Origin: an uncultured Eubacteriales bacterium
GTDB lineage: Bacteria > Actinomycetota > Coriobacteriia > Anaerosomatales > PALSA-660
DNA length: 32,920 nucleotides
NCBI GenBank assembly: GCA_964533555.1
Contig: CAZHMA010000003.1
Coordinates: 2,777-35,696 of the forward strand
Direction: 5' to 3'
Part shown: positions 675 to 29,079 of the stretch, one piece after another
Layout: every line of letters begins with the position of its first letter
Position numbering within the stretch: position 1 is the first letter of the stretch
Translations under genes and position numbers: made by a program
Notes under the pieces: model-generated
The model's database searches: none
What the model was told of the DNA's origin: nothing
What the model saw: only the letters and a program-made list of their open reading frames with translations

Positions 675-3196
675 TCCAGTTCCGACTGGCCTGGCGCTAT
701 CTGAAGGGGCGCGGTCTGCGGACCCTCCTGACGACGCTGGCCGTGGTGCTCGGGGTCATGCTCATCTTCGGCATGAACGGCGTCCTGCCCGCGATGGTGA
801 CCGCCTTCCGCGCGGCCACTCTGTCGTCTGCCGGTCAGGTCGACCTGAGCGTGACGTCGGACATCGGCGGGACGTTCGGCACCGACGTGTTCCGCGAAGC
901 GGCCCGCGTTCCGGGTGTCGCGGGCGCCACGCCCTCGCTGCGCCGGCTGGCGGCCCTGCCGCAGAAGCCCGGTCCCGCTGATCCCAACGCGGTCGCGTCG
1001 GTGAACGTCATCGGTGTCGATCCGGCCACGGTCTCCACCGTGCGGACCTTCCCGATCTCCGTCGGCCGCTTCCTTGCCGGGAGCGACGGCGACACCGTGG
1101 TCATGGCCCAGGACCTGGCCGTCAGGCTCGGTCTCCGCGTCGGCGACTACTTCGTCATGCCGTCGTCCGTGGGGACCCAGCGCCTCACAGTCGTCGGCCT
1201 GCTCTCGACGCCCTCCATCCCCGGTCAGGACGAGGTGTTCCTGCCGCTGGCGGCCGCGCAGCGCCTGTTCGCGCTGCCCGACCGCATCAACGCCATCGAC
1301 ATCTCGTACGCGAAGGGCGTGGACAGGGCCGCGGTCGAGGCGGCGATCAGGCGCGCGCTCGGGACGGGGTACACCTTCGGCGGGCTCGGCACGACCGACC
1401 AGCTCCTCGCCAGCATGCAGGTCGCCGAGTTCTCCTTCAATCTGTTCGGCGTGTTCGCCATGGTCGCCGGCGGGTTCATCATCCTCAACACGTTCCGCAC
1501 CGTCGTGTCCGAGCGCCGCCACGACATCGGCATGTTGCGCGCGGTCGGGGCGACGCGCGGGACCGTCGTCGGTATGTTCCTTGTCGAGGCGACCTTCCAG
1601 GGGATACTCGGCACGGCGCTGGGCATCCTTCTCGGCTGGGGTCTTGCGGTCCTGTCCATCGCCAGCCTCGGCGGGGTGACGCAGAAGTTCCTGCACTTCG
1701 CGCTGGGACCGCCGGTCTTCACGCCGACGACGTGGGCGCTCGCGATCTCGCTCGGCATCGTCGTGACGCTGGTGTCCGCGCTCATCCCCGCCGTGTCGGC
1801 GGGGCGGGTCACGCCGCTCGAGGCCCTGCGGCCCGCGCTCGGGTCCGTCTACGAGGCGGCGTCCCGCAGGCGCGGCGTGATCGGCGGGGTCATCTGCGGC
1901 GTATCGGTGGCGCTGCTGGCCACGCGTCAGTCGGGCGCCGCCGCCGGAGGGGCCGTGCTCTTCATCATCGGCCTTTCTCTCGCGGCGCCCATGCTCATCC
2001 AACCGCTCTCCGAGGCGATCGGCCGCTTGTTCGACCTCCTCATGTCGCGCGAGGCCAAGCTCGCCCGCTCCAACCTCCAGCGCAACCCGGGTCGCAGCGC
2101 CACGACGGCGTCCGCGGTCATGATCGCGCTTGCGGTCGTCGTCGCGATGCTCGGGGTGTTCCAGTCGATCTTCGTGGGGTTCGCGGGCTACATCGACAAG
2201 GCGATGGGTGCCGACTTCATGTTCATCCCGGGCAACATCGTGCTCGCTCAGGGCAACGTCGCTGCGGGACCGCGCCTTGTGACCGAGATCTCGCACACGC
2301 CGGGCATCGCAGCGGTAGGGACACTGCGGATCACCACCGCGAAGGTCAACGGCGCCTCGGTCCAGGTCGTCGGCATCGACCCGGTGGTCTATCCGAAGGT
2401 GGCCGACTTCGTGTGGCAGACCGGGTCCGCATCCACCGCCGTGACCTCTCTCGGCACGGGGCGCCAGCTCATCGCGAACGCCATCTACGCGTCACAGAAC
2501 GGCCTCAACGTGGGCGACCTCGTCATGCTCGAGACGCCGAAGGGCACGGTCGGCTACCGCGTCGCAGGGATCGGCAGCGACTACCTGAACGCCAAGCTCG
2601 CGACCATCTACATCTCGCAGTCGGAACTCAGGAAGGAGTTCGACGTCACGTCGGACGTGATGGTGATGGCCACGCTCAGACCCGGGGCGGACCGTGCCGC
2701 CGCAAAGCGCGCCCTCGACACGGTCGTCGCGGACTTCCCGGCGTTTCGGCTGTACGAGTCCAAGGCCTGGAAGGCAGAGCAGATGACCACGTTCGACCAG
2801 ACGATGGTCTTCATGTACTCGCTCATCGGCGTGCTCGCCCTGCCGTCGCTGCTCGCGCTCATGAACACGCTCGCCATGAGCGTGCTCGCGCGTACGCGTG
2901 AGATCGGGATGCTGCGTGCGGTCGGTTCCACGCGGACCCAGGTGAAGCGCATGGTGCTGGCGGAATCACTGCTGCTGGCCGCGATCGGCACGCTGTTCGG
3001 CGTGGTGGCCGGCGTCTGGCTGGGCTACGCGCTCGTCGAGGCGACGAACACGCTCTTCCCGATGCCGTACACGTTCCCGACCGGCGGAGTGATCACGGCG
3101 GTCGTCGTCGGCATCGTCTTCGGCATGATGGCGGCTTGGCTGCCCGCGCGTTCGGCGTCCAAGTTGGACGTCGTCGCGGCGCTGCACTACGAGTAG
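671..3196 (+). CDS. ABC transporter permease with two FtsX domains (MacB-type, 841 aa)
   Basis: Long GC3-rich ORF with multiple TM segments. Two copies of the FtsX-type cytoplasmic loop motif (RRHDIGMLRAVGATRGTV and RTREIGMLRAVGSTRTQV). Translationally coupled to the upstream ATPase. Confidence 0.9.
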
Positions 3197-5121: not shown

Positions 5122-5337
5122 GGTCTCACTGCCAGTTCAGAGTCTGTGATGGATCCGGCTCGATGCACTGATATGTATCGGTGCGCGGCGCCCCGAGGTT
5201 AACGCCTTCAGTCAAACGGTCGGCCCGCTCGTCCGATCGGTACGACCGGAAGTCGCCGCCGCGCGGTCTCCTCGTGAGCCCGTTCGGGCATGCCGCTTGC
5301 TCCTGTGAAGTTCGCGTACCCGCAACAGGAGGCAGCG

Positions 5338-6039
5338 ATGTTCTTGCCAAGCCGCGAAGGCGACTACCGTTCGGTCCCCGCGCTCGACGCCGCGCGCCAC
5401 GACGACGTCCGGACGGCCACCTTCTCACTCGGTTGATTCTGGGGACCTGACGCCCGGTTCGGGAGTCTGCCCGGAGTCATCCGCACGCGCGTGGGCTACG
5501 CCGGGGGCACGACGCCGGATCCGACCTACCACGCGATGGGGGACCACACCGAGACCGTGGAGATCGACTACGACCCGTCGGTGATCTCGTACGACGACCT
5601 GCTGGGGGTCTTCTGGCAGGGCCACGACCCGCGACGCCCGTCGGGTTCGGTCCAGTACCGGTCCGCCATCCTGTACCGGACGGAGGAGGAGCGCGCGGAG
5701 GCGGAGGCCTCGCTCGAGCGAGTTCGCCGTGTTCTCGGCACCGTGGTCACCTCGGTCGAGCCGCTGAAGCACTTCCACCCGGCCGAGGACTATCACCAGA
5801 AGTACTACCTGCGCGCCCGACGGGAACTCATGGCGGAGTTTCGCGCCATGTGTCCGGCGGACGGGGATCTCGTCGACTCGACCGCGGCCGCGCGAGTGAA
5901 CGGCTGGCTGGACGGGTACGGGACGACTGAGGAGATCAAGGACGACCTTCCTCGGACGGGCCTGTCCCATTCGGCCCAGCGCGAGCTGCAGTCCCGCATA
6001 CACCGTTCTCGCGGCGGCCTGTTCGCCCGGACCGGGTGA
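5338..6039 (+). CDS. msrA: Peptide-methionine (S)-S-oxide reductase MsrA with in-frame UGA (candidate selenocysteine, codon 33)
   Basis: ATG 5338 is preceded by AGGAGG (5327-5332, 5-nt spacer). Frame 1 reads [66 protein letters not shown]..., which is the GCFWG active site with TGA in place of Cys. The ORF-track fragment 5491..6039 is the same frame downstream. Confidence 0.75.
5441..5472 (+). promoter_or_regulatory. SECIS-like recoding hairpin downstream of UGA 5434-5436
   Basis: Upper hairpin is 5449-5467: GAC-G-CCC-GGUUC-GGG-A-GUC (3 bp, 1x1 mismatch, 3 bp, 5-nt loop containing GGU). It starts 12 nt after the UGA. A possible lower stem pairs GGG 5442-5444 with CCC 5470-5472. Confidence 0.5.
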
Positions 6040-6074
6040 CGGCGCGTCCGTCGAGCCGGACAAGGGAGCGCACC

Positions 6075-6476
6075 ATGGCATGCAATGTTCGACACACCGA
6101 CGAAGAGTGGCTGCGGATCCTGACGGCCGACCAGTACAGGGTCCTTCGGCAGCAAGGCACGGAGCCGCCGTTCGCCAACGAGTGGTGGGACGAGCACCGT
6201 GAAGGCGTCTACCGATGTGCCGGCTGCGGGGCGCCGCTGTTCGACGGGCGCGACAAGTACGATTCCGGAACCGGCTGGCCGAGTTTCAGCCGTCCCATCG
6301 CGGATGACGCGGTAGAGGAGCACGTGGACCGGGGCGCGGGCATGGTCCGCACCGAGGTGCACTGCGCGCGCTGCTGCGGACACCTGGGGCATGTGTTCGA
6401 CGACGGCCCCGCCCCGACCCGACTGCGCTTCTGCATGAACTCCGCGGCGCTGCAGTTCGAGCCGCGCGCAGACTGA
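6075..6476 (+). CDS. msrB: Peptide-methionine (R)-S-oxide reductase MsrB
   Basis: Motifs: QGTEPPF, two CxxC pairs (CAGCG, CARCCGHLGHVF), GTGWPSF, catalytic RFCMNS. AAGGGAG at 6062-6068 lies before ATG 6075, so the ORF-track start at 6036 is probably too long. Confidence 0.9.
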   Translation: MACNVRHTDEEWLRILTADQYRVLRQQGTEPPFANEWWDEHREGVYRCAGCGAPLFDGRDKYDSGTGWPSFSRPIADDAVEEHVDRGAGMVRTEVHCARCCGHLGHVFDDGPAPTRLRFCMNSAALQFEPRAD

Positions 6477-12206: not shown

Positions 12207-12464
12207 CTAGTTGGCGATCACGTACACCTTGTCGCCTTCGCGTACGTGGTCGACGACCCGGATGCCGATCTCGTCGCCTTCGTGCGCTTCTTCGATGTGG
12301 CGGTGCTCCACCTCCATCGACATCACGGGCTGCGCGAGATCGCTCGTGTGACCGACGATGTGCACCGTGTCGCCTTCGTGCAGGACGCCGTGGTCCACGT
12401 GGATCCCGGCGACCATCGGACGCCCGAACCAGTGCGTCACGTGCCCGACCAGCTGCTCGGCCAT
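12207..12464 (-). CDS. Translation elongation factor-like small protein (EF-Tu domain-2-like beta barrel, 85 aa)
   Basis: MAEQLVGHVTHWFGRPMVAGIHVDHGVLHEGDTVHIVGHTSDLAQPVMSMEVEHRHIEEAHEGDEIGIRVVDHVREGDKVYVI matches my memory of this small family. GGGAGGTG lies 6 nt upstream of ATG 12464. Confidence 0.7.
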   Translation of the reverse strand: MAEQLVGHVTHWFGRPMVAGIHVDHGVLHEGDTVHIVGHTSDLAQPVMSMEVEHRHIEEAHEGDEIGIRVVDHVREGDKVYVIAN

Positions 12465-12541
12465 GACCGTCACCTCCCTATGGACAGTTCCCGACCGTGC
12501 GAAGAGCCACGCGTGGTTCTTTCCCACCTTCCGCCGACGAA

Positions 12542-12590: not shown

Positions 12591-13163
12591 CTAGTAGGAC
12601 TCGACCCAGAGCTCGTAGTAGGACTGCGGATGCTTGCAGGCCGGGCACTCGAGCGGGGCGGACGTGCCCTCATGCACGTAGCCGCAGTTGCGGCACTTCC
12701 AGCGCATCGGGCGGTCCTTCGAGAACACCTGGTTGTTCACGACGTTCGCCAGCAGCTTGCGGTAGCGCGCCTCGTGCTCCTTCTCGACGTCGGCGATCTC
12801 ACGGAACGAGGTGGCGACGTCGGCGAACCCCTCCTCCTCGGCGGTCGCGGCGAACGAGGGATACAGGGTGCCCCACTCCATGTGCTCGCCGTCGGCCGAC
12901 GCGAGCAGGTTCTCGGCGGTCGTGCCGATCTTGCCGGCCGGATACGAGGCGGTGATCTCGGTGTCGCCGCCCTCCAGGTACTTGAAGAAGACCTTCGCGT
13001 GCTCCTTCTCGTTCTCCGCGGTCTCGAGGAAGAGCGCGGCGATCTGCTCGAGTCCGTCCTTCTTGGCGACTCCCGAGAAGTACCAGTAGCGGTTGCGCGC
13101 CTGGCTCTCGCCCGCGAACGCTTTCAGCAGGTTGAGTTCTGTCTTCGTGCCCTTGATGCTCAC
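12591..13163 (-). CDS. rbr: Rubrerythrin
   Basis: Ferritin-like diiron ExxH motifs (ENEKEH, VEKEH) plus a C-terminal rubredoxin-like CRNCG...CPACKHP. GTG start 13163 with GGAGG 6 nt upstream. Confidence 0.9.
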
Positions 13164-26130: not shown

Positions 26131-26150
26131 GCAAGCAAGCACTTGCATAC
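26127..26150. promoter_or_regulatory. TetR-type operator (GTATGCAAG-N6-CTTGCATAC)
   Basis: Perfect 9-bp inverted arms overlapping the -10 box and the predicted start site. They are nested inside the outer inverted repeat CTTGACG (26101-26107) / CGTCAAG (26150-26156). Confidence 0.6.
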
Positions 26151-26169
26151 GTCAAGAGGGAGCGTGGAG

Positions 26170-26772
26170 ATGACCGCAGCGGAACGAGAGGCCGGCGACG
26201 CCATCCTGGTCTCCGCCGCCGAGCTGTTCGCGGAGCGCGGGTACAAGGGCACCACCACCCGGGCTATCGCCGAGCGCGCCGGGGTGAACGAGGTCACGAT
26301 CTTCCGCCGGTTCAAGAACAAGCAGGGTGTCCTCGTGGCCCTTGGCGCGTCGTGGGCCGGTCGCATGGCGGGGTTCGCGGTGACGAGCATCCCTGACCCC
26401 TCGGACACGAGGGGGACCCTCGAGGCGCTCGCGCGCCTGGAGGTGCTGCAGGCCGTCGAGTTCGGAGGTGTGGCGATGCGGCTGGCGATGGACGCCCGCT
26501 CGAACCCGGAGGTCGCCGAAGTGATGGGCGGAGGCCCGGGGCAGAACTTCGCGGGGCTCGTCGCCTATCTGAAGGAGCGCCAGAAGGCGGGCGATCTGCG
26601 CGGCGACATCGATCCGCGCGTGATGGCCGAGGCGTTCTTCGCCTTGACGTCCCAGACGGTGATGTCCAGGCAGGTGCTCGGAGACACGACCGAGTACGAG
26701 CTGCCGGTGGAAGCCGTGAGCGGTCCGCTGTTCGAGCTGTTCATGAGCGGTGTCACGAAGGGCGTGGAGTAG
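26170..26772 (+). CDS. TetR/AcrR family transcriptional regulator
   Basis: HTH TTTRAIAERAGVNEVTIFRRFKNKQGVL. GAGGGAG (26155-26161) lies 8 nt before ATG 26170; the ORF-track start at 26143 lies inside the operator. Confidence 0.85.
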   Translation: MTAAEREAGDAILVSAAELFAERGYKGTTTRAIAERAGVNEVTIFRRFKNKQGVLVALGASWAGRMAGFAVTSIPDPSDTRGTLEALARLEVLQAVEFGGVAMRLAMDARSNPEVAEVMGGGPGQNFAGLVAYLKERQKAGDLRGDIDPRVMAEAFFALTSQTVMSRQVLGDTTEYELPVEAVSGPLFELFMSGVTKGVE

Positions 26773-27420
26773 TTGAGCGAGGAGATCACGCGGCGACGGT
26801 TCCTCAAGCTGGGAATCGGCGCCGCAGCGGGAATCACCGTGTTCGGAGCGGGGTATGCGGCAACATGGGCGCCGGAGCTGGAGCAGCCCCGGTCGAAGAT
26901 GGGAGCGGGCATGAGCAAGGTACTGGTGGTCTACGGAACGGGCAGCGGCTGCACGACGGGCGTCGCGGAGCGTATCGGCAAGGCGCTGGCCGAGAAGGGC
27001 GCGTCCGTCGAGGTCGTCCCGGCGAAGGACGCACCGGCGCCCGAGGGCTACGACGCGGTCGTGGTGGGAAGCGGCATCCGGGCGGGCCAGTGGCACGCGC
27101 CGGTCAAGGAGTGGGTGGCGAAGAACGCCGGGACGCTGAAGCAGACGCCCGTCGCGTTCTACACCGCATGCCTCACGCTCGCGCAGGATCCCGGCAAGAC
27201 CGACGAGGTGCGCGCCTACACGGACCCCGTCATCACGGAGACGGGCGTGGAGCCGGTCGACACCGGGATGTTCGCAGGGTGGAACGAGCCGAAGCGGTTC
27301 TCCTTCATCGAGCGCACGATCCTCAAGATGATGAAGGCGCCCGAGGGCGACTTCCGTGACTGGTCGAAGATCGATGCCTGGGCGGCCGAAACGGCGCCCA
27401 AGCTCGGGCTGACGGGCTAG
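26773..27420 (+). CDS. Flavodoxin-like (HemG/Flavodoxin_5-type) protein with N-terminal twin-arginine signal
   Basis: TRRRFLKLGIGAAAGITVFGAGYA is a consensus Tat signal. The flavodoxin core starts at MSKVLVVYGTGSGCTTG. TTG 26773 abuts the upstream TAG. An alternative internal ATG 26911 has GGGAG 5 nt upstream. Confidence 0.7.
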   Translation: MSEEITRRRFLKLGIGAAAGITVFGAGYAATWAPELEQPRSKMGAGMSKVLVVYGTGSGCTTGVAERIGKALAEKGASVEVVPAKDAPAPEGYDAVVVGSGIRAGQWHAPVKEWVAKNAGTLKQTPVAFYTACLTLAQDPGKTDEVRAYTDPVITETGVEPVDTGMFAGWNEPKRFSFIERTILKMMKAPEGDFRDWSKIDAWAAETAPKLGLTG

Positions 27421-28260
27421 GTGGCCGGGATGCAGCGCCACAAGACCGGTTTCGTGCTGTCCTGGATCGTTGCGGCGCTGGCGACCGTGGTGTCGGTCGG
27501 CGGGCTGTTCTGGGGCGGGCTCTACCGCGACAACGCCATGATCAAGGCGGCGATGCAGGGCAACGACCTGGTCACGCTCGTGCTGGTCGTGCCGCTCATG
27601 ATCGTGGCGATGGTGTTCGTGCGGCGCGGCTCGCAGCGCGCCGAGCTCGTCTGGCTCGGGACGGTCGTCTACATGCTGTACAACTTCGCGTTCTACTTGT
27701 TCGGCTGCGCCTTCAACCGCTTCTTCTGGCTCTACGTCGCGCTGTTCTCGCTTTCGATCTGGGCGCTCGTGTTCTCGGTGCCGCGACTGGACGTGGCGGC
27801 GATGGTACGCGGCATGCGCGCGAAGACGCCGGTGCGGTGGGTCGCCGGGTGGATGTTCGCGCTGGGCGCGCAGCTGGGTGTGATGTGGTTGGTGCGCTCG
27901 GCGTCGTTCTGGACGACGGGCGTCGTGCCTGTCGACGTGACGCAGACCGGCAACCCCACGGCCATCGTCTACGCCCTGGACGGGTCGATCCTCATCCCGG
28001 CGTTCATCATCGCCGCCGTCATGCTGTGGAACCGCAAGCCGTGGGGCTATGCGATGTCGGTGATCGTGATGGTCAAGGGCGTCGCGTACGCCATCGGCCT
28101 GCAGGCCATGTCGTACTTCGCCAACGTCCAGACGGGCACGCCCGATCCGCTCACGCCGTTCTACGCGTATCTCGGTCTGTTCAGCGCGCTGGCGCTCGGG
28201 GCTATGCTGGTCGGCATGCGGCCGGCGGCGGCATCGGGCGTCGTGACGGAGGGAGTGTAG
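27421..28260 (+). CDS. Hypothetical polytopic membrane protein (about 7 TM)
   Basis: GC3-rich and hydrophobic throughout. GTG 27421 abuts the TAG; ATG 27430 with AGGTGG 5 nt upstream is an equally good start. Confidence 0.65.
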   Translation: MAGMQRHKTGFVLSWIVAALATVVSVGGLFWGGLYRDNAMIKAAMQGNDLVTLVLVVPLMIVAMVFVRRGSQRAELVWLGTVVYMLYNFAFYLFGCAFNRFFWLYVALFSLSIWALVFSVPRLDVAAMVRGMRAKTPVRWVAGWMFALGAQLGVMWLVRSASFWTTGVVPVDVTQTGNPTAIVYALDGSILIPAFIIAAVMLWNRKPWGYAMSVIVMVKGVAYAIGLQAMSYFANVQTGTPDPLTPFYAYLGLFSALALGAMLVGMRPAAASGVVTEGV

Positions 28261-29079
28261 GTGGGTCTGCATCTCGAGGAACACGGAACGGAAGGCGCGC
28301 CCTCGATCGTCTTCCTGCACGGTGGCGGAGGAGCGGGCTGGATGTGGCGCCCGCAGGTCGAGGCGCTGAAGAGCGACTTCCACCTGCTGGTGCCGGACCT
28401 GCCTGAGCAGGGGCGGAGCACCGACGCCGGGCCGTTCACGATGGCTTCGGCCGCCGGACAGGTCGCGGACCTCATCCGGTCGCGGGCGCGTGGCGGCGTG
28501 GCCCACGTCGTCGGCCTGTCGGAGGGTGCGCAGGTCGGGGTCGAGCTTCTTGCCACGGCACCGGAGGTCGTTTCGACCGCGGTGCTGTCGAGCCCGCTCG
28601 TTCGGCCGATCCCCGGCGGATCGCTGATGACACCGGGAGTCGTGCGGTGGTCGTACCGGCTCTCGGTCGCCCCATTGCGCGGCTCCGACTGGTGGATCCG
28701 GCTCAACATGCGCTCGGCGGCCGGCGTCCCGGACGCCTACTTCCCGGAGTTCCGCGAGAGCTTCCGGACGCTGACCGAGTCGGGATTCGTGGACCTGATG
28801 ACCGCGAACCAGAGCTACCGGCTCCCGGACGGACTCGGCCGCGCGCAGGCCCGGACGCTCGTCGTCGCGGGTGCGAACGAGTACCGGGCCATGCGGGAGT
28901 CGGTCCGCGAGGTGGCGGCGGCCCTTCCCAACGGGACGGCGCGGCTCGTACGGCACCCGGGGAAGATGAGCCTGGCTCAGGAGCACAACTGGAACATGAC
29001 CGCGCCCGAGCTGTTCAACCGCGTGGTGCGCGAGTGGATCTCCGGGGATGCGCTGCCCGCCGAACTGGTCGAGGCCTGA
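28261..29079 (+). CDS. Alpha/beta hydrolase fold protein
   Basis: Oxyanion-hole region IVFLHGGGG and nucleophile elbow GLSEG. GGAGGGAG lies 6 nt before GTG 28261, which abuts the upstream TAG. Confidence 0.8.
   Translation: MGLHLEEHGTEGAPSIVFLHGGGGAGWMWRPQVEALKSDFHLLVPDLPEQGRSTDAGPFTMASAAGQVADLIRSRARGGVAHVVGLSEGAQVGVELLATAPEVVSTAVLSSPLVRPIPGGSLMTPGVVRWSYRLSVAPLRGSDWWIRLNMRSAAGVPDAYFPEFRESFRTLTESGFVDLMTANQSYRLPDGLGRAQARTLVVAGANEYRAMRESVREVAAALPNGTARLVRHPGKMSLAQEHNWNMTAPELFNRVVREWISGDALPAELVEA

Follow-up and report, generated by a model that had tools for sequence, protein, structure and literature searches.

The closest described system to the gene discussed here is that of CoMsrA, the selenoprotein methionine sulfoxide reductase A (MsrA) of Clostridium (Alkaliphilus) oremlandii OhILAs (PDB 4LWJ-4LWM, 4U66). 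The Sec version of this enzyme is 20-fold more active than the Cys version, it is recycled by glutaredoxin and not by thioredoxin, its active site has been named as GCFWG, Y47, E55, Q89, Y90, H137, and Y140, and changes at its termini collapse the active site (PMC4333827). Classical MsrAs carry a catalytic Cys together with resolving Cys residues and are recycled by thioredoxin (PMC13188914, PMC4333827). MsrA with a GUFWG/H motif is included in a 2026 review among the experimentally verified prokaryotic selenoproteins (PMC13188914), and in 2006 the Actinobacteria were counted among the selenoprotein-rich phyla, while MsrA of Syntrophobacter fumaroxidans was listed as a bacterial selenoprotein (PMC1794560). 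In this work a stretch of 32,920 nucleotides, referred to throughout as the window, was analyzed, in which positions 5338-6039 very probably encode a further enzyme of this kind, a selenoprotein methionine-S-sulfoxide reductase A of 233 residues in which the UGA at 5434-5436 is decoded as Sec.

The frame in question lies on the plus strand and opens with the ATG at 5338-5340, 5 nt downstream of a Shine-Dalgarno (SD) sequence AGGAGG read from the sequence at 5327-5332; a similar AGGAGG likewise precedes the ATG of the homologue at locus L091. After 32 sense codons the frame meets a TGA at 5434-5436 and then stays open until the stop TGA at 6037-6039, giving a full msrA CDS of 233 codons plus stop (5338-6039) with codon 33 as the UGA. 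This predicted selenocysteine codon (U33) occupies the catalytic position of the motif G-U-F-W-G. All of these coordinates had been given in a preliminary description of the window and were borne out, as was its remark that automated gene calling had hidden the active site: the program-made list of open reading frames contains for msrA just 5491-6039, a model of 182 aa with a GTG start. The same description had taken TGA to be an ordinary stop in this DNA, and the stop usage of the 33 confident genes of the window agrees with it (19 TGA, 14 TAG, and no TAA). TGA is the commonest stop and normal in 19 of 33 genes, which excludes a reassignment of the genetic code. A scan of the window for a second in-frame TGA with protein-like coding on both sides found none, the msrA site standing alone.

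The epidemiology of the codon was addressed by comparison with homologous loci. The homologous codon is TGA in loci L001-L004, L086-L088, L091, and L093, whose products have 60-78% aa identity to the window protein, and every close relative fetched carries TGA at this site. A scan of GTDB with one genome per species returned 80 homologous loci, 74 of which have TGA at the site and six TGT or TGC. According to their record titles the carriers of TGA belong to the Dehalococcoidia, Anaerolineae, sulfate reducers, Syntrophales, Synergistaceae, and Spirochaetaceae, and further to the Planctomycetota, Nitrospirae/Nitrospirota, Acidobacteriota, and clostridial Firmicutes; cultured strains with the TGA form include Desulfosarcina widdelii PP31 and Desulforamulus aeronauticus DSM 10349. 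Eight Actinomycetota-labelled MAGs (Coriobacteriia/Coriobacteriales, Thermoleophilia, Gaiellales, Actinomycetes, and Actinomycetota) are also among them. The family presents a Sec/Cys pair, TGA being conserved in the orthologues and Cys being present in other homologues. As read from these codons, the predicted Sec form is the majority state of this MsrA subfamily among the retrieved homologues and is present in several Actinomycetota lineages. The preliminary description had argued that a TGA on the redox residue is no random hit and had proposed a search for TGA or TGC in related genomes; both points find their answer in a codon shared by all close relatives and by 74 of 80 independent loci. 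Its view that Sec-MsrA is rare and would be odd in a high-GC Gram-positive background did not stand, given the TGA majority in the subfamily (74/80) and the eight Actinomycetota MAGs.

Database models of these proteins are frequently affected by the codon. Of the 120 database proteins nearest to the window protein, about 40 are shortened models of 160-194 aa which start immediately past the site. The JGI model from locus L003 (P0002, full-length, 74% identity) carries Trp there and thus reads GWFWG. It should be noted that this Trp corresponds to a TGA at L003 283-285, and that genetic code 4 was evidently applied to the 1.7-kb high-GC contig, with a falsely full-length MsrA as the outcome. 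A different kind of artefact was seen in L001, a 1.84-Mb long-read contig in which a 1-nt insertion at about 2930-2945, in the N-terminal region of msrA, distinguishes it from the otherwise identical short-read L002; this insertion is an assembly frameshift, and the adjacent ArgZ-like gene is fragmented too. In the homologue of an "uncultured Alcaligenaceae" MAG (L055, about 3070-3130) G-U-F-W-H replaces GUFWG, which fits the published GUFWG/H motif (PMC13188914).

The codons ahead of the TGA provide information on whether the frame is translated across it. Over the 32 pre-TGA codons the substitutions among close relatives number 89, 83, and 167 at codon positions 1, 2, and 3, respectively, and the N-terminal pattern MF.P...DYR..P.LDA....RTATF.LG is kept in L003, L086, L087, and L091, while the region 5' of the ATG is unalignable among close relatives. 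This pattern indicates that the 32 codons evolve as protein, under purifying selection. No damage is seen in the SD sequence, the start codon, any active-site residue, or the downstream msrB. Codon conservation, selection at the protein level upstream of the TGA, and the lack of other damage together lead us to regard the TGA as a recoded codon and not as a lesion.

Downstream of the codon, every TGA form reads UUC UGG GGN CCN before a hairpin begins. In the window this structure, GAC-G-CCCG/GUU/CGGG-A-GUC, lies at 5449-5467 (plus strand) and starts 12 nt past the UGA, its apical loop with an invariant G-U-U starting 20 nt past the UGA; the energy of the sub-hairpin is -9.5 kcal/mol, and the window copy has one G.A mismatch (pair 19-31 of the alignment described below). 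We take these distances of hairpin and loop from the UGA to be the geometry of SelB-dependent bacterial SECIS elements. Spacing and the G/U of the loop are known determinants of SelB recognition. Folding of the window sequence on its own (5425-5500, 76 nt) gave z = -0.88 against shuffles, which is unexceptional at 70% GC, and with a fold indistinguishable from shuffles the case for the hairpin is a comparative one. It was built on an ungapped alignment (A2) of 75 distinct TGA-form sequences, in which an 8-bp helix between columns 16-23 and 27-34 was tested. Paired cells make up 80.5% of this helix, covariation is seen at pairs 18-32, 19-31 (UA:38, GC:15), and 23-27 (GC:51, AU:8), and none of 500 shuffles matched the observed percentage of pairing and covariation. 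The register is best at slide 0, shifted registers reaching 22-59% paired. At the codon level, Gly GGG and Ser/Ala NCC are fixed in 73 of the 75 Sec forms, the synonymous Phe codon UUU is seen only with A as its partner, with no G-U at pair 23-27, and the 3' arm in the window uses the Ser codon AGT, which makes up 3.2% of Ser codons in the window genes.

The conserved peptide PD(A/S)(R/Q)FG partly constrains the hairpin as well. Seven Cys-encoding homologues have a nearly identical peptide, yet their Gly/Ser/Ala codons vary; on average 3.29 of the 8 pairs are formed in them vs 6.46 of 8 in Sec forms, and the mean local folding energy is -5.0 vs -11.5 kcal/mol. The frozen synonymous codons, the coupling of UUU to A, the rare AGT, and the poorer pairing of the Cys forms show that the pairing is not a mere by-product of the conserved peptide. 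A hairpin as expected of a CoMsrA-type selenoprotein gene is present, and its covariation and fixed codons are confined to TGA forms. Neither a SECIS nor any other credible RNA family was returned by Rfam, whether for the whole window at the gathering threshold or for 5300-5600 at E<=10. From its position, form, and covariation, the hairpin at 5449-5467 is predicted to act as a bacterial SECIS element and SelB binding site.

When Cys is put at the TGA, the translated protein of 233 aa matches the Pfam family PMSR (PF01625) over aa 26-162 (E 1e-40, 139.9 bits vs a cut-off of 23.7), corresponding to a catalytic domain at 5413-5823 (plus strand), and the NCBIfam model msrA TIGR00401 with 117.1 bits vs a cut-off of 108.1. 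The nucleophile motif G32-U33-F-W-G36 and the substrate residues Y64, E72, Q106, Y107, H153, and Y156 are invariant in relatives (alignment A1), these residues aligning with Y47, E55, Q89, Y90, H137, and Y140 of CoMsrA. The closest solved structures by sequence are those of the C. oremlandii selenoprotein MsrA, 4U66 and 4LWJ (phmmer, E 1.3e-50, aa 24-210), in a match which, running to aa 210, extends past the catalytic domain. The 200 residues that follow the UGA were modelled with AlphaFold (pLDDT 83), and the model has full-length CoMsrA as its best fold match in Foldseek, with TM 0.83/0.81 over 193 columns and a helical C-terminus, while ordinary one-domain MsrAs match the catalytic domain only (about 125-150 columns, TMq about 0.53-0.60). 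The Pfam family PF20939 MsrA_helical ([quoted passage not shown]) gives a weak match of 16.9 bits, below its cut-off of 23.7. According to the phmmer alignment and the predicted model, the window protein thus appears to carry a C-terminal helical domain of the CoMsrA type, typical of selenoprotein MsrAs, at 5824-6036 (plus strand). Its sole other Cys, C172, is replaced by Tyr or Phe in P0002-P0006, P0010, P0018, and P0026; since it has no conserved resolving Cys, the window MsrA is of the 1-Cys type like CoMsrA. An alignment to known MsrAs, which the preliminary description had called for, has given the Sec-type CoMsrA as the best match by both sequence and fold, with the active-site residues kept.

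The gene lies next to a Cys-type msrB at 6075-6476 (plus strand; RFCMNS motif, two CxxC pairs, Pfam SelR E 3e-50), its operon partner. The ATG of msrB at 6075 is preceded by AAGGGAG at 6062-6068, and an alternative GTG at 6036 overlaps the stop codon of msrA. An identical 133-aa protein is predicted on an independent 953-nt Logan contig, which ends short of the TGA, and the 146-aa version is without match, so that ATG 6075 is the more probable start. The gene order around msrA in the window (ABC/MacB permease, ArgZ-like (TIGR00300), divergent hypothetical, msrA, msrB, SDR) recurs in L087 and L093. The latter is a 2.67-Mb contig from a related organism (ENA ERZ25039554 contig_9706, 2003700-2024926) whose synteny with the window is extended, comprising ABC/MacB, the ArgZ-like gene (80.6% nt identity), a TGA-containing msrA, msrB, and genes for a sensor kinase, for rubrerythrin, and for an aldo-keto reductase. 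For the ArgZ-like neighbor the sole named close homologues are from "Coriobacteriia bacterium" MAGs, with 81% and 75% identity. An anaerobic way of life is suggested by the rubrerythrin and nitroreductase genes of the window and by genes of the radical-SAM and BcrAD/BadFG types in L093, and the host would seem to be an anaerobe among the actinobacteria that is related to the Coriobacteriia. Two further features of the window were recorded. At 26143-29079 (plus strand) genes for a TetR regulator, a TAT-signal flavodoxin_5 protein, a 279-aa protein without Pfam match, and an alpha/beta hydrolase lie in one reading frame, each ending in TAG with the next start abutting it (TAG/TTG at 26770, TAG/GTG at 27418 and 28258), a zero-spacer layout which is unusual. 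On the minus strand an ORF of about 106 aa (12207-12527), just downstream of rubrerythrin (12591-13163), has sub-threshold Pfam matches to the domain 2 beta-barrels of EF-Tu/EF-G and is far too short for SelB.

The machinery for Sec insertion was searched for in the window and around the homologous loci. ARAGORN found no tRNA in the 32.9-kb window and only tRNA-Met and tRNA-Glu, with no tRNA-Sec, in the flanks of 91 loci; Pfam and NCBIfam found no SelA, SelB, or SelD domains in the approximately 33 window genes, and tblastn with E. coli SelA, SelB, and SelD gave no match in the window or in any fetched locus. The Sec-decoding capacity of the host genome is inferred from the msrA gene itself.

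Four kinds of observation made here, the conservation of TGA in orthologues, protein-level selection upstream of it, a covarying hairpin specific to TGA forms, and the position of CoMsrA as closest relative by both sequence and fold, support the reading first made in the preliminary description, namely that ORF calling has hidden a Sec codon which occupies the catalytic position of MsrA. Other explanations have nevertheless to be weighed. A Cys-type msrA that is decaying or mis-assembled, and that yields no full-length protein, could owe its TGA to a nonsense mutation or to an error of sequencing or assembly. Gene callers do halt at the TGA and give 5491-6039 only, and assembly errors do occur in the msrA family, as the 1-nt indel of L001 with respect to L002 demonstrates; such an origin is nonetheless at odds with a TGA that every close relative shares and that recurs in 74 of the 80 independent species loci, with purifying selection on the 32 N-terminal codons, and with an intact start codon, SD, set of active-site residues, and downstream msrB. 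The conservation of the codon effectively refutes the reading of this TGA as pseudogene or error, whose probability we regard as negligible. It is no more credible that translation ends at the UGA and that the functional product is a nucleophile-less MsrA-like protein made from the downstream ORF, starting at GTG 5491 or at another internal start. This would leave the conservation of the 32 upstream codons and of the hairpin unexplained, and the product would be without the GUFWG motif and the first beta-strand and helix of the PMSR fold, in a family where terminal changes collapse the active site of CoMsrA (PMC4333827). The ORF at 5491-6039 exists, and databases hold many models of this sort with 176-188 aa, but there is no SD ahead of 5491, and internal initiation was rejected on this and the preceding grounds.

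A reading in which the UGA is translated as something other than Sec deserves separate attention, although we consider it very unlikely. The amino acid could be Cys, delivered by SelB with a tRNA(Sec)-like tRNA(Cys), or else reassignment or near-cognate suppression could give Trp or Gly. For some bacteria a SECIS-dependent insertion of Cys through tRNA(Sec)-like tRNAs has been suggested, the JGI pipeline gave Trp for the corresponding TGA of L003 (P0002, GWFWG), and neither the 32.9-kb window nor the fetched flanks contain a sel gene or a tRNA-Sec. Against this, TGA ends 19 of the 33 window genes, a normal stop by which genetic-code reassignment is rejected, and Trp or Gly as nucleophile would inactivate MsrA. 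[quoted passage not shown] We see only a slim chance for the broader alternative that the UGA and its SECIS are read without canonical Sec, for example by SelB-dependent insertion of Cys via a tRNA(Sec)-like tRNA, or for the related idea that the near-invariant SECIS within the PD(S/A)(R/Q)FG codons may mark a self-contained Sec-MsrA gene which has spread horizontally over many anaerobic phyla, including Actinomycetota that recycle the enzyme with an as yet unknown reductant.

If the gene encodes a selenoprotein, as we favor, translation would initiate at ATG 5338, the hairpin at 5449-5467 would recruit SelB-GTP-Sec-tRNA(Sec) as the UGA enters the A site, and Sec would be inserted at 5434-5436. 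By analogy with CoMsrA, Sec33 of the GUFWG motif would attack Met-S-sulfoxide, with formation of a selenenic acid, and an external thiol reductant would then recycle Sec33, possibly a glutaredoxin and not thioredoxin as in that enzyme. The msrA gene would be co-transcribed with the Cys-type msrB.

Selenoprotein MsrA is already known, and the window gene is a mis-annotated further member of a characterised family; as this family has been described both biochemically and structurally, no new biological question is opened. The chief value of the finding is one of annotation, the gene being modelled as a 182-aa MsrA fragment without nucleophile, and shortened or Trp-containing models of this sort understate the methionine-sulfoxide repair and the selenium dependence of uncultured anaerobes. 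The msrA gene would imply a Sec-decoding system in the Coriobacteriia-related lineage and serve as a marker of selenium use there. The family-wide alignment also yields a clean covarying SECIS consensus which could seed a covariance model for the detection of Sec-MsrA.

When compared with known systems, the window protein is most like CoMsrA, with which it has about 40% identity. The two share the UGA at the GUFWG nucleophile, the PMSR domain followed by a C-terminal helical domain, and the Tyr/Glu/Gln-Tyr/His...Tyr active site, and neither has a resolving Cys that is conserved. Unlike CoMsrA, the window protein has an N-terminus longer by 17 residues, a longer, Arg-rich C-terminal tail, and one non-conserved Cys, C172, which has no counterpart in CoMsrA. 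The pairing of the gene with msrB is a further difference, and the host would be an actinobacterium-like anaerobe of about 70% GC as opposed to a low-GC Firmicute; the reductant of CoMsrA is glutaredoxin, including a Sec-Grx. The hairpin resembles bacterial SECIS elements such as that of E. coli fdhF, read by SelB, in lying within the CDS directly 3' of the UGA and in having a G+C-rich upper stem and an apical loop, here with an invariant G-U-U. It differs from them in the family-specific sequence CCC(G/A)GUU(C/U)GGG, which derives from (S/A)-(R/Q)-F-G codons and has no Rfam model, and in that its SelB role is a predicted one. Classical two- and three-Cys MsrAs (E. coli 1FF3, M. tuberculosis 1NWA, C. 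diphtheriae 4D7L) have the PMSR fold and the G-C/U-FWG motif in common with the window protein but are without the helical domain, and in the fold comparison no more than about 135-150 of their columns align (TMq about 0.53-0.60). The Cys-type MsrAs of the same subfamily (P0007/L089, L006, Microcoleus L054/L063, and archaeal L064/L067/L074) have the same domain architecture, and differ in having TGC or TGT at the site, variable Gly/Ser/Ala codons, and a degraded hairpin with a mean of 3.3 of 8 pairs. Among these L089, with 62% identity, also has the ArgZ-like/msrA/msrB synteny in common with the window. In its TGC-containing segment 1644-1685 six of the eight hairpin pairs remain, and the sequence of L089 suggests that Sec was exchanged for Cys recently and that the SECIS is decaying.
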